Assembly: GCA_963804995.1 (NCBI GenBank)
Contig: CAWDSK010000003.1
Span: forward strand, 96,001 to 160,000
DNA length: 64,000 nucleotides
Origin: an uncultured Acidobacteriota bacterium
Lineage (GTDB): Bacteria > Acidobacteriota > Terriglobia > UBA7540
Direction: 5' to 3'
The notes beneath the pieces were generated by a model. It did not search any database and was not told where the DNA came from. It saw nothing but the letters and a program-made list of their open reading frames with translations. The number at the start of each line of letters is the position of its first letter. Position 1 is the stretch's first letter. Both the position numbers and the translations under genes were made by a program. Of this stretch, positions 372-51,540 are shown in pieces.

Positions 372-2149
372 CAAGTGCAGGTCGCACTTCCGGCTTTGAG
401 GTCAGTGGTCTTTCCTAACGAAGAAGGGTCGCGGACGCTGCCCCCAACCTAAGAGTCAGTGCCAGAGCGTGGGCAAGGGATGAAGAATCGCCAGGCGAGG
501 ACTTTGGGTGCGATTGGGGAGTAACGCCTTGCTGCTGAGTGTTGGTCACGATGACAACGCGTCCGGCGGCGCGGCTCTATCGCCGTACCTTCTTGAGGAG
601 GCGCTCGTAGGCCTCCCGATAGACGCTATTCTTGGGATCGAGTTCGAAGGCCGACCGGTACTCTTCTAACGCCCCCCGGTGGTCGGTTTTCCGCTCAAGC
701 GCAAAGCCAAGGCGGTAATGGGCTTCTGCGTCGTTGGGGTTTAGTCGTAATGCTTGGCGCTCTTCGGAGATTTCTCCGTCCCAATCGCCCTTGATCTCAA
801 GCGTTTTCCCAAGGTAAACGTGCGCCATCTCGCTTTTGGGATTGAGGCGCAGCGCCTCACGATATTCCGCGATTCCTCCCTCCCAGTCGCCCTTGACAAC
901 AAGCCCATAACCGAGGGCCACGTGCGCCCCGTCATTATTGGGGTTTAGGCGCAGGGCCTCACGGAACTCCGCCATCGCACCATCCCAGTTGCCCTTGTTC
1001 GCAAGCGCAACGCCGAGGTTGTAGTGCACATTGTCATCATCGTGGTTCAACTGCGAAAGACGTTCGTAATTCCCTTTATAGGTCGCGTTTTTGGGGTCGA
1101 GCGTGAAGGCCGCGTGATATTCCTCCAGAGCCCCCCGCCGGTCACCTTTCTTCTCCAGTGCGAACCCGAGGCCCTCGTGCACCGCGTCACTATTTGGGTT
1201 TAAGCGCAGCGCCTCGCGGAATTCCGTGATCGCTCCGTCCCAGTCGTGCCTGAGTCCGAGCGCGACGCCGAGGTTGAAGTGCGGCTGGTCATTATTAGGG
1301 TTCAAGCGGAGGGCTTCGCGTTCTTCCGCGATCGCCGCATCCCATTCGCCCTTCTTTCCGAGCGCGAGGCCGAGGTTGCTGTGCGCCAAGTCATTATTGG
1401 GGTTTAGGCGCAGCGCCTCACGCTCTTCAGCGATCTCGCCATCCCTGTCACCCTTGTTTCCGAGCGCGATACCCAGGTTGTTGTGCGCCATGTCATTATC
1501 AGGGTTTAGGCGCAGCGCTGCGCGTTCTTCAGTAATCTCTCCGTCCCAATCGCCCTTGTTTCCGAGTGTGGCACCGAGGTCGAAGTGTAACTCCGCATCC
1601 TCAGGGGCTAGGCGAAGCGCCGCGCGAAACTCGGCCTCGGCGTCAGCGTACTGTTTGCCCCTGTAGAATTCCCCCGCACGCGCGACATGTTGCCGCACTT
1701 CCGTTTGCCGCGCCTGGAGTGCGGGGTCAACATGCTCCGGCTTCGTCACCTTGGCACTTTTGAGCGCGCTGATTAGTTCGTCCTCGCCACCAGCCAAGCG
1801 GGCTTCCTGAAGGTAGTCATCCGTGGGCTCAAAATCGATTCCGCGTTCCTGGACCAGCATAGTGACTCGATGGCTCGGCACTTGGCCCGCCAGCAAGGCG
1901 AAAACCTGCACCTGGTTCAGCGGCTTCTTCGCACTCGCAGACCCGGGCGGCTTGGCTGTGCGCAGCGCCTTAAGAAATGCCTCGCTCGCGCCTGCGGCCT
2001 TGAGGGTTTGGCAAAAATCCTCAGACGGGGCGAAATCAATCCCGCGCTGCTCGATCAGCTTGGCGCCCGACTCATCGCCCAACCCGTCCCGCACCAGGCC
2101 TTCGACCTGCTCCCGCGTAAAGGGCTTCGCCGTGCTGAGGCCTGGAGTT

Positions 2150-2297
2150 GTAGCGCTGACCTTGAAAGCCTGCCCTGAGCTTGCCGAAGGGTCAGCGTGC
2201 CGTAGCGGCGGCATGCATCCCGATCCTATCGGGACGCCGCCATGGCGAGGTAAACTCGCCGCTACGTAAGCATGTGCCGACCTCAAGGTCGGCGCTA
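2150..2297. repeat. Nested cluster of GTAG-type REP-like palindromes inside the TPR gene coding region
   Basis: GTAGCGCTGACC..GGTCAGCG (2150) with inner CCTGCCCTGAGCTTGCCGAAGGG; GTAGCGGCG..CGCCGCTAC doublet 2202-2265 with inner TCCCGATCCTATCGGGA; GCCGACC-TCAA-GGTCGGCGCTA(C) ending at 2297. Confidence 0.85.
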
Positions 2298-3061
2298 GTG
2301 CGCCTGAGAGCGCACACGACCGGAGAGGTGAAAGTCCTCTCCAAGTCGACGTAACTTGTAATCAACTGCAACTGCGTCGTGGTGACACGGGGTGGGGAGC
2401 AGCAGGAGGTGAACGGCCAGTCCGTACGATAAGAAACTCGATTCGGCCGGTGAGGCGTGGCGAGCCTGCTAGCGAATGGCGAAGCCCCGAGTTCCCGTTC
2501 CCATAGGGAAGCAATCTTGGTTCGATCCGCCGACAGGTAACGTGCCTTGGCGAGACGGAGCGCACGCAGGTGGTTGGAGACGGAATGGTCGGAAGGTCGG
2601 GTGCGTGAATCAGGGAGACCTGTTCGCGTGGAGCCGAAGGGGTGGCCGCTGGGAAGAGCCCGAGCACTGCCAGGACGGCGCGAGCAGGAGTCAGAGCGTC
2701 CATAAGAGCGACGAAGGGCCGTAATGGGTCTGGAGCGAAGGGACGCAGGAAGGTGGATGAGGAACTTCGGAGGAACGGGGATACCCCCACGGCCAAGTGC
2801 CTTCGGGCTAAACCGCACGTGGGCTCGACTCGCCATCGCTGGAGCCGAGCACCTGAACCTTGGGAGTTCATCATAGTGGTGGCCCTCTGCGGAGGGCGCG
2901 GCTTCTCGCCGATCCTCCGGTGCCTTCTCCTGGGCCTCGGTTGGACCGACATCACTCCTCTTCGAGGTAAAACCACCGACTGGAGAGCCGGATGCGGGAG
3001 ATCCGCCTGTCCGGTTCGGAGGGAGGGGGGACCGAACTCAATCGGTTCTCCCTACCCCTAT
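2298..3061 (+). mobile_element. Group II intron lacking an intron-encoded protein (764 nt)
   Basis: 5' GTGCG at 2298; domain V GAGAGCCGGATGCGGGAGATCCGCCTGTCCGGTTC (~2983-3017, AGC triad); domain VI ending CCTACCCCTAT at 3061; excision restores both the REP end (GGCGCTA|C) and the host reading frame. Confidence 0.92.
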
Positions 3062-3214
3062 CGATCTTCTGCTGTGCCCACAGGGGCGGCGTCAGAATCA
3101 GGGGTAGGACGAGGAGGAGCAGGAATAGTCGGGGCCGCATGGGTGCCTCCCGAAATGAGGAATGCGGGCATTCTACCACCTAGCGCAGCGCTGCGTAGCC
3201 GCAACCCAGGCAGG

Positions 3215-3360
3215 ACTCACCGCAGAGGCGCGGAGGCACAGAGTCTTGAAATCCAAAGGCCTTTTCTCTGCGTCTCAGCGCCTCGGCGGTAAATATTATA
3301 TTTACTCGCGGCTTTTCCTCCGCTCGGTCTCCGTGACCTCTGTGGCCTCTGTGGTGAAAT
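3215..3360. repeat. Imperfect palindromic repeats (CACCGCAGAGGCGCGGAG family)
   Basis: CACCGCAGAGGCGCGGAGGCACAGAG...CTCTGCGTCTCAGCGCCTCGGCGGT inverted arms; related copy at ~8232-8312. Confidence 0.6.
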
Positions 3361-50791: not shown

Positions 50792-51540
50792 CGTCTCGTA
50801 GGGGCATAGGCGTTAACCTAAGAGTTCGATGCGTCCGAAAGCCCGCAAAGCGGGCGTAAGGTCGTAGCCCACTGCGTAAGCGGTGGGTAAAGAAATCGTG
50901 TAAAATTCCCGCCCAGCCCCGGAGGGGCGAAAGGACATGTCGCACACCTACACCAACCTGCTAACGCACGTTATTTTCAGCACCAAGTACCGCGAGCCAT
51001 TGATTACCTCGGCACTCCAAGACGATCTGCTCGGCTACGTGGGCGGAATTGTGCGCGAACTGGGCGGGGCGCTCCGGGCCGCGAACGCCCGACCGGACCA
51101 CGTGCACCTGCTCTGCTCGCTGCCGCCCACGGTTGGGACGGCGGACGCCTTGCGGGTCGTGAAGACCAATTCCTCACGTTGGCTACACCGCAGCCGGGGT
51201 TTTCCCCGATTCGACTGGCAAACCGGCTATGGAGCGTTCAGCGTCAGTCATTCCCTCGCACCCGCCGTTGTGCGGTACATTCGCGAGCAGGAGAAACACC
51301 ATCGCCGCGTAACGTTTCAGGAAGAATTCATAGACTTTCTGAAGAAGAACGGCATTGCGTATGATGAGCGCTACATTTGGGCGTGAATCCTTTCGCCCCT
51401 GGCGGGGCTTAGGGGAGAGAGGCGCGTCTTTTCCCACGGCTTACGCCGTGGGCTACGACCTTTCGCCCGCTTTGCGGGCTGTCAGCATTTCTGAGAGTTA
51501 GGTTAACGCCTATGCCCACGAGGGGTGCCCCTACGAGACG
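50792..51540. mobile_element. Y1 tnpA unit flanked by mirrored REP arrays and nested inverted repeats
   Basis: Mirror arms CGTCTCGTAGGGGCA/TGCCCCTACGAGACG, CATAGGCGTTAACCTAA/TTAGGTTAACGCCTATG, AGCCCGCAAAGCGGGCG/CGCCCGCTTTGCGGGCT, GGGGCGAAAGGA/TCCTTTCGCCCC. Confidence 0.8.
50937..51386 (+). CDS. tnpA: IS200/IS605-family Y1 (HUH) transposase
   Basis: HVIFSTKYR, PDHVHLL (HUH), WQTGYGAFSVS, RYIREQEKHH. Confidence 0.93.
   Translation: MSHTYTNLLTHVIFSTKYREPLITSALQDDLLGYVGGIVRELGGALRAANARPDHVHLLCSLPPTVGTADALRVVKTNSSRWLHRSRGFPRFDWQTGYGAFSVSHSLAPAVVRYIREQEKHHRRVTFQEEFIDFLKKNGIAYDERYIWA

Follow-up and report, generated by a model that had tools for sequence, protein, structure and literature searches.

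How does a group II intron that carries no RT gene come to lie exactly inside a REP hairpin, and can such an element still move? The question is raised by a 764-nt element in a stretch of 64,000 nt from the genome of an uncultured Acidobacteriota bacterium (the window; G000:C3:96001-160000). The initial annotation, made from the letters of the window alone, took the element for a complete but ORF-less intron that is non-autonomous, is mobilised in trans and uses an abundant repeat as its homing site.

The intron is complete. It begins with GTGCG at 2298 and ends with CCCCTAT at 3061, and these GTGCG and TAT ends follow the group II rule (GUGYG ... AY). The proposed search with the Rfam intron model (RF00029) matched domains V and VI, at 2983-3061, with 52.6 bits (gathering score 40; E 1.8e-7 in the 64-kb window), and the same region displays an AGC catalytic triad, a 2-nt bulge and a bulged branch A3054, as expected of a group II ribozyme. 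Further, the architecture of six domains is backed by covariation in domains I-III (21 helices), together with the domain IV stem and domains V/VI (Table 1). The absence of an RT ORF was likewise correctly annotated: tblastn with the cognate IEP returned nothing inside either this intron or the second copy described below, and the four ORFs that overlap the intron (82-216 aa) have no Pfam match. When 12 ORF-less copies were aligned with 4 ORF-bearing ends, the first ~70 nt of domain IV proved homologous to the beginning of both domain IV and the IEP gene in ORF-bearing relatives, and its remainder is common only to other ORF-less copies.

Table 1. Features of the intron and its surroundings, in positions of the window
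Feature	Position	Strand	Details
TPR-repeat protein gene split by antisense intron	577..3140	-	start codon and signal peptide 3140-3062, rest 2297-577
Neighbouring REP doublet	2202..2265	.	GTAGCGGCGG...GCCGCTAC; ends in unoccupied hairpin+CGCTA|C site, 2264|2265
Target REP, 5′ part	2276..2297	+	stem GCCGACC 2276-2282 / GGTCGGC 2287-2293, tail GCTA 2294-2297; IBS1 = CGCTA 2293-2297
ORF-less group II intron	2298..3061	+	764 nt, GTGCG to TAT
Domain I	2303..2614	+	intron positions 6-317, closing stem 6-10/313-317; RNAalifold on 22 relatives, pair counts on 26
EBS1 (TAGCG)	2470..2474	+	11-nt terminal loop of domain I
Putative EBS3 (G)	2573	+	partner of IBS3 = C3062
Domain II	2615..2692	+	intron positions 318-395; helix 18 with both-side changes in 5/11 pairs
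Domain III	2696..2746	+	intron positions 399-449; helices 19-21
Domain IV without ORF	2752..2977	+	basal stem GGUGG/CCACC
Domain V	2985..3017	+	33 nt, AGC triad, 2-nt bulge, loop GAGA
Domain VI	3018..3061	+	bulged A at 3054, 7 nt 5′ of the 3′ splice site
IBS3 (C)	3062	+	first 3′ exon base; last base of REP head CGCTAC

The structure of domains I-III was modelled with RNAalifold from an alignment of the first 465 nt of 26 relatives. Its 21 helices are paired in 97.6% of the cells and 40 of the 125 pairs have changed on both sides, among them compensatory changes in the helix that closes the EBS1 loop (A1 columns 211-213/225-227). None of 500 shuffled controls scored as high, and partners slid along the alignment pair in about 40% of the cells. 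Because the aligned relatives are kin, these figures express consistency and no probability; as a model, the structure is nevertheless far beyond chance. Both copies in this genome lack an inner hairpin of domain I that is present in relatives, and the second copy lacks six more bases there.

The second copy, of the kind the initial annotation had advised looking for, lies 53 kb from the first, at C3:45244-46001. It is 758 nt long and differs from the first by 4 substitutions and one 6-nt deletion (~99.5% identity). The two copies have unrelated outer flanks, and each sits in a different REP hairpin, GCCGACC-tcaa-GGTCGGC for copy 1 and GGCGGTC-ata-GACCGCC for copy 2. Both junctions nevertheless read hairpin-GCTA|intron|C, so that the 5′ exon consists of the hairpin plus CGCTA and the 3′ exon starts from C. 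Stem, GCTA tail and C3062 all bear out the view that the insertion splits the terminal tetranucleotide of a REP just after the GCCGACC/GGTCGGC hairpin. The stem of copy 1 followed by GCTAC occurs at 21 sites of the genome, and eight paralogous loci run uninterrupted across the reconstructed 2297|3062 junction; the REP of copy 2 is found in at least nine exact uninterrupted copies of 25-27 nt that span its junction. No target duplication was seen at the insertions. Since uninterrupted paralogous sites cross the junctions and the target is not duplicated, the boundaries of the intron are exact. An empty orthologous site from a sister species was considered as a boundary test and set aside, as the nearest genomes are only 69-76% identical at the flanking fmt gene, and the paralogous empty sites were used instead.

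Sites of this type are abundant. A perfect hairpin followed by GCTAC occurs 896 times in the genome, the tail being common to many stem families, and the REP doublet next to the intron has dozens of genome copies at 88-96%. The four other REP ends that had been put forward as potential targets (A|C at 2264/2265, 6359/6360, 8149/8150 and 62374/62375) are real hairpin+CGCTAC sites. Only 2 of the roughly 860-900 suitable sites in this genome are occupied. When 133 genomes of the bacterial family were searched for the REP type that received copy 2, 100 proved to have it, with 1 to 231 copies in each, and a reversed-pattern control gave 0 in every genome. These repeats correspond to a REP/RAYT system in that they are short hairpin repeats headed by GTAG and coexist with a Y1 transposase gene flanked by such repeats: the Y1 transposase family (PF01797) has 14 matches in the genome, one of which, at 50938-51387 of the window, lies between inverted GTAGCC hairpins. 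An Rfam match to the sRNA family Acido-Lenti-1 (40 bits, window 51433-51480) coincides with the hairpin+CTAC REP located 3′ of this RAYT-like gene. The inverted partner of that REP lies upstream of the gene, at about 50866-50890, and the Acido-Lenti-1 motif at this place looks like a transposase-end REP and no sRNA gene. Another palindrome, an imperfect repeat of about 75 nt at 3216-3293 of the window, has weak miRNA-like Rfam matches only; copies with 80-95% identity occur in many genomes of the genus, and some of these genomes have dozens.

The choice of the site can be read from base pairing. The sequence TAGCG, which had been noticed for its complementarity to the 5′ exon end CGCTA, occupies a terminal loop of domain I in the structure model and forms 5 of 5 pairs with IBS1 in both copies of this genome. 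Among 31 junctions where both partners are readable, 26 pair at all five positions, three at four, one at three (L040) and one at a single position (L076, seemingly one base short at the junction). Eight variants of the loop sequence were encountered (TAGCG, TAGCT, CAGCT, GAGTG, AGTGC, TGCCG, GTAGT and GTAGA), each with a matching exon. The loop thus covaries with the 5′ exon in relatives that belong to other species of the bacterial family, which identifies TAGCG as EBS1. Five pairs covary and a sixth position is unpaired in copy 1 (A opposite G).

A scan of all alignment columns singled out the column of G2573 as the sole one to pair with the +1 exon base in every relative (23 of 23); three letter types occur in it (G opposite C or T, A opposite T, T opposite A). 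Two relatives fetched later also fit, one of them with the predicted A and T, which brings the total to 25 of 25. As the column was found by scanning all columns and RNAalifold places it inside a helix, the assignment of G2573 as EBS3 is only inferred, well supported as it is. Between them, EBS1 and EBS3 read CGCTA|C, which on the opposite strand is the REP head GTAGCG, and the insertion splits GTAG (G|TAGCG on that strand). That both pairings covary and both copies lie in multi-copy REPs upholds the idea of an abundant repeat as homing site.

No EBS2 pairing was seen, the candidate region of the intron staying constant while the stem changes. In G045, the hairpins that precede four near-identical ORF-bearing copies differ in sequence, which argues that EBS2 is absent. 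The hairpin was counted by form, as a perfect stem of at least 6 bp that ends 0-6 nt upstream of the 5′ junction. It is present at 33 of 41 junctions (32 of 40 without L067, which comes from an unpublished genome), compared with 378 of 20,000 random positions (1.9%) and 857 of 9,148 CGCTA sites (9.4%) in this genome. At least two of the eight junctions without a perfect hairpin, L055 and the copy on contig C6 of this genome, have imperfect ones. On the strength of these counts the hairpin itself is a target feature of the lineage, and REP/hairpin targeting is a trait of the whole lineage, including its ORF-bearing members, rather than a peculiarity of the ORF-less copy. Two ORF-less introns with EBS1 TAGCG, L040 in G016 and L041 in G018, are located at hairpin sites with the tails CACTC and TGCCA (3/5 and 4/5 pairs). 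These tails fit the EBS1 of other subfamilies better than that of the introns they hold, and the two sites could result from ectopic insertion or from recombination between subfamilies.

A hairpin followed by short pairings is the target of class C (IIC) introns, and the lineage may be a divergent branch of that class with ordinary IIC targeting, in which case the copy studied here would be one more ORF-less IIC intron of the HYER type. This is a tentative reading, of lower standing than the one we prefer. The available text of PMC1702495 defines IIC introns by a CGC triad, a distal domain V stem 2 bp shorter than in IIA/IIB, an EBS1-IBS1 pairing of 3-4 bp, and a stem-loop of the 5′ exon at the position of IBS2, with no EBS2. 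The lineage has the last of these, the stem-loop at the IBS2 position with no EBS2, and it also agrees with IIC introns in the target of hairpin, short IBS1 and IBS3, in an IEP without endonuclease domain and in a length of ~1.9 kb. Contrary to this, the triad is AGC in all aligned relatives (GAGCCGG...), domain V has 33 nt, one position less than the 34-nt Rfam consensus, and EBS1-IBS1 has five covarying pairs. The annotation had already remarked that, despite the hairpin-adjacent insertion, an AGC triad and a full-length domain V are not of the IIC type, and the comparison with the available text of PMC1702495 agrees. In the part of domain I where IIC introns have their epsilon-prime region (an 11-nt bulge with a conserved AGGAA) lies a nearly invariant stretch of the form GCAGCAGGAGGUGAAC, which may or may not correspond to that motif.

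Among solved RTs in the PDB, the IEP is closest to IIC enzymes (GsI-IIC 211.8 bits and the 7uim chain 206.8, compared with 147.8 for LtrA and 140.1 for TeI4h), which would favour membership of class C. This ranking is uninformative, since the IEP of the resident family B, which homes to plain sequence sites without a hairpin, also reaches 181-196 bits with the same IIC RTs; PDB scores do not separate hairpin-targeting from ordinary families and were discarded as a basis for classification. The Rfam D1-D4 models, which the initial annotation had also suggested, yielded no class assignment: the sole match was to group-II-D1D4-3 with 19.3 bits (E 0.28 in a 1.4-kb search), and an ORF-bearing relative had none at E <=0.5. 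Because two features of domain V differ from the definition, EBS1 is longer and the PDB scores do not discriminate, we regard the lineage as working like IIC in its targeting and do not file it as IIC.

The effects of the insertion on the host gene bear on its age. The intron lies antisense within the TPR-repeat gene and cannot be spliced from its mRNA, so the gene is split. Removal of the intron in silico gives a 599-aa frame that is open from the ATG at 3140, with a signal peptide common to about 11 paralogues, and the remaining 569-aa frame is still open. The open 569-aa frame and the 99.5% identity of the two copies together point to a recent insertion. The paralogues form a secreted protein family, represented at 3140-2100 (minus strand) of the window and at about 11 further loci (e.g. 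on C5 and C9), in which MRPRLFLLIL...QQK is followed by PFTREQVEGL.... In two members both parts are adjacent, and the others carry between them an in-frame, stop-free, REP-derived insert (e.g. VAPTLRSAH, ADLKVSATT). It appears that translation turns REP hairpins into variable linkers in this family.

Both intron copies are on the strand opposite to the flanking ORFs, which makes their transcription doubtful. Four public runs, in which the strain was not shown to be present (at most 0.20 of the sampled words in any run), contained no exon-exon contig joining 2297 to 3062. Contigs from RNA libraries of three runs join the ORF-less domain IV to domain V in relatives that are ~90-92% identical; they derive from other strains and may reflect DNA carry-over.

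Relatives of the intron were sought at the DNA level in 133 genomes of the bacterial family. In 58 of these genomes there were matches, many of them to domain V alone and so possibly belonging to other intron families. Twenty-four elements could be extracted with both ends: 13 are ORF-less (441-795 nt), one measures 1265 nt and ten measure 1888-1905 nt. The frame is open over 457-532 aa in seven of the ten long elements and broken in the other three. In the IEP of full-length relatives RVT_1 and GIIM are the only domains, and an endonuclease domain is missing. The 1265-nt element is the one on contig C6 of this genome, where the RT gene is internally deleted. One homologous ORF-less domain IV, unlike an ORF and with changes that look compensatory, recurs in 10 copies from six species (G000, G016, G018, G019, G024 and G034) at different target sites. 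Since the same domain IV occupies different sites in six species, the ORF-less form itself has moved, and the intron is indeed non-autonomous. Two other ORF-less copies (G031, G039) share a different domain IV. A single origin of the ORF-less form did not emerge, as the ribozyme tree resolves no single clade and ORF-bearing copies of G045 and G017 are nested among the ORF-less ones. Deletion has gone to extremes in L085 (G031:C32) and L055 (G007); a derivative of about 200 nt joins intron positions 1-115 to 676-760, and a 441-nt derivative is without domains II-IV.

Which protein moved the two introns? No intact cognate RT gene was found in this genome, whose assembly is 92% complete and may miss a copy, and the broken copies are two. 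The cognate element on contig C6 has lost the middle of its RT gene. The remnant IEP gene at C9:153780-155135 keeps a 452-aa open frame, with YADN instead of the catalytic YADD; the element matches positions 125-1610 of a full-length relative and is without the C-terminal ~55 residues, domain V and both intron ends. The search for copies and for an RT-bearing parent advised by the initial annotation thus gave a second copy, also in a REP, and a parent that is broken here and full-length in other species. Among the six genomes with this ORF-less form, an intact cognate IEP was detected in G024 only; G018 has frameshifted pieces, and G016, G019 and G034, whose assemblies consist of 110 to 770 contigs, have only IEPs of 37-39% identity. 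With the cognate RT genes of this genome broken, the two introns are most likely recent but now stranded insertions. Of the annotated mobilisation in trans, the part that stands is that the ORF-less form has moved; because an intact cognate RT is missing from this genome, mobilisation in trans would be a piece of history and no present state.

The genome houses three further intron families, A (38 copies), B (3) and D (6), all of them with open RT frames, and an RT-maturase of one of these could be keeping the two copies mobile. Family B resembles the 764-nt intron in the layout of its 5′ end and in domain V, where identity is 89% across 37 nt, the near identity of the two copies (~99.5%) would suit continued mobility, and the available text of PMC2882425 reports that in Thermosynechococcus some IEPs of relaxed specificity mobilise several ORF-less introns. 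However, the IEPs of the three resident families share only 35-39% identity with the cognate IEP, compared with 84-100% among the Thermosynechococcus IEPs (PMC2882425, in the available text), the targets of families B and D are ordinary sequence sites that lack a hairpin, and two copies are few for some 900 targets. Present-day mobility through a resident family is, on balance, improbable. Family A is autonomous, with an RT ORF and 38 full-length copies of 1913 nt (e.g. C2:245871-247783), all in the 3′ arm of one REP family, ...G(A/G)GGTCTG|CGC(TAC/CAG). Its copies keep to one strand per contig. No replication-strand bias could be read for the REP-targeted 764-nt intron, as the cumulative GC skew is weak and two copies are too few to judge. 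Family D, with 6 copies of ~1960 nt (e.g. C4:160354-162315 and C6:293626-297542, two of them head to tail on C6), matches group-II-D1D4-4 with 125.9 bits, and its domain V gives no RF00029 match at E <=0.1. Its target is a plain sequence site (...GGCGAAGGA|). It was considered as an IIC-type helper and rejected as an ordinary homing intron, given the D1D4-4 match and the lack of an upstream hairpin.

Taken together, the element at 2298-3061 is very probably a non-autonomous, ORF-less member of a group II lineage with IIC-like targeting of REP hairpins, which would have relied on an RT-maturase acting in trans and is now most likely stranded. The lineage is spread across this family of soil Acidobacteriota, its full-length members of ~1.9 kb encoding an RT-maturase without endonuclease domain. 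Its target is a DNA hairpin, then five bases that pair with EBS1, then one base that pairs with EBS3, with no part for EBS2. As the GTAGCG head belongs to the REPs that go with the REP-associated transposases of the genome, each such REP is a potential homing site. The sequences show the anatomy, the pairings, the target rule and the presence of the ORF-less form at several sites; the cycle built on them is a proposal. In it the intron would be transcribed, spliced with the help of an RT-maturase supplied in trans by a full-length relative, reverse-spliced into the REP hairpin strand and then copied into DNA. Several of the findings above weigh against this account: a helper was not identified, five of the six genomes with the ORF-less form yielded no intact cognate IEP, 2 of roughly 860-900 suitable sites are occupied, both copies run opposite to the flanking ORFs, the inner hairpin of domain I is absent, L040 and L041 lie at sites that do not suit their EBS1, and the ribozyme tree gives no single ORF-less clade.

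Some of these same findings would suit an ORF-less RNA that is kept for an activity of its own, namely a HYER-like, protein-free hydrolysis in which EBS1 and EBS3 would guide the cutting of REP DNA or RNA in single-stranded form. Hydrolysis of single-stranded DNA by ORF-less IIC introns, with recognition of ~7 bp, has been reported (cited in the available part of bioRxiv 10.1101/2024.08.31.610620), the ORF-less form persists in six species, five of them without a detectable cognate IEP, and the changes in domain IV look compensatory. Low copy numbers, positions that look accidental and the breaking of a gene by one of the copies speak against such a function, and the data behind it also fit decaying relics, so that we consider it very improbable. 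Spread of the copies at the DNA level without reverse splicing, by carriage with a REP transposase or by REP-REP recombination, might be suspected from the embedding of the intron in REPs and the 14 Y1-transposase matches, and is next to negligible, because the two REP stems differ (GCCGACC and GGCGGTC), which means that no REP sequence moved with the intron, and because both junctions are exact at A|C in agreement with EBS1 and EBS3 and the flanks contradict it.

A 2015 review states, in its available text, that insertion guided by a structural motif is confined to class C, all other lineages homing to sequence sites, and that ORF-less introns are rare in bacteria (PMC4424553). The lineage described here obeys the target rule of IIC introns although its catalytic domain is of a non-IIC type. 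Its six guide bases are fixed on the conserved head of a REP family that 100 of 133 related genomes contain, so that each genome offers the intron hundreds of safe places to land. In the same genome another intron family (A), which is autonomous, fills 38 REPs. The lineage therefore provides a natural, sequence-readable system for the evolution of hairpin recognition in group II introns, for the interplay between retroelements and REP/RAYT systems (the GTAG head being split by the insertion) and for the persistence of gene-less introns; it also puts on offer compact ribozymes with a readable guide of 5+1 bases. The boldest picture, in which targeting guided by structure (hairpin plus six bases) extends beyond class C, a lineage with an AGC triad and a nearly full-length domain V is tied to the REP/RAYT repeats of a whole bacterial family, and its gene-less offshoot survives in several species without an RT of its own, on borrowed unrelated RTs or as a protein-free, REP-cutting ribozyme, is an unlikely one. 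In the openly accessible literature that was searched, we found neither a group II lineage homing to REPs by EBS1/EBS3 nor hairpin targeting outside class C; the parts are known singly and their combination was not found described.

Several known systems resemble the lineage in one respect or another. The closest in targeting are the class C introns, e.g. B.h.I1, which according to the available text of PMC1702495 and PMC4424553 insert a few bases past a DNA stem-loop, use short EBS1-IBS1 and EBS3-IBS3 pairings with no EBS2, encode an IEP that consists of RT and X domains alone, measure ~1.9 kb when full-length, and lie outside or against genes. Unlike them, the present lineage has an AGC triad, a 33-nt domain V and an EBS1 pairing of 5 bp instead of 3-4, and its stem-loops are REPs with a fixed 6-base head instead of terminators or attC sites. 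The HYER ribozymes, described as ORF-less IIC introns in the available part of bioRxiv 10.1101/2024.08.31.610620, are also natural ORF-less RNAs that recognise ~6-7 target bases; in contrast to them, domain V here does not support IIC membership and hydrolysis is hypothetical. In Thermosynechococcus elongatus, TeI4 IEPs mobilise the ORF-less TeI3 introns in trans. These introns are likewise ORF-less derivatives that share a deletion form, occupy several sites, show good EBS/IBS pairing and keep the proximal part of domain IV (PMC2882425, in the available text). The Thermosynechococcus introns home to type sites of 20-35 bp beside closely related IEPs, whereas here the target is a hairpin repeat and the ORF-less form is found in six species, five of them without a detectable intact cognate IEP. 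Group IIB introns located beside attC in hypersaline samples provide another case of non-IIC introns just past a stem-loop, and the authors speculate that the structure helps targeting (PMC7923331); the available text describes single or fragmentary copies with no covariation or target statistics, in contrast to the 41 junctions available here. Finally, REPs are known as insertion sites of mobile elements (Tobes and Pareja 2006, PMC1525189), and 2 of 9 copies of a group II intron of Pseudomonas putida KT2440 are REP-associated. That is a minority association for which the available text gives no mechanism, whereas here every copy of two intron families lies in a REP, and the pairing that reads the head of the repeat has been identified.
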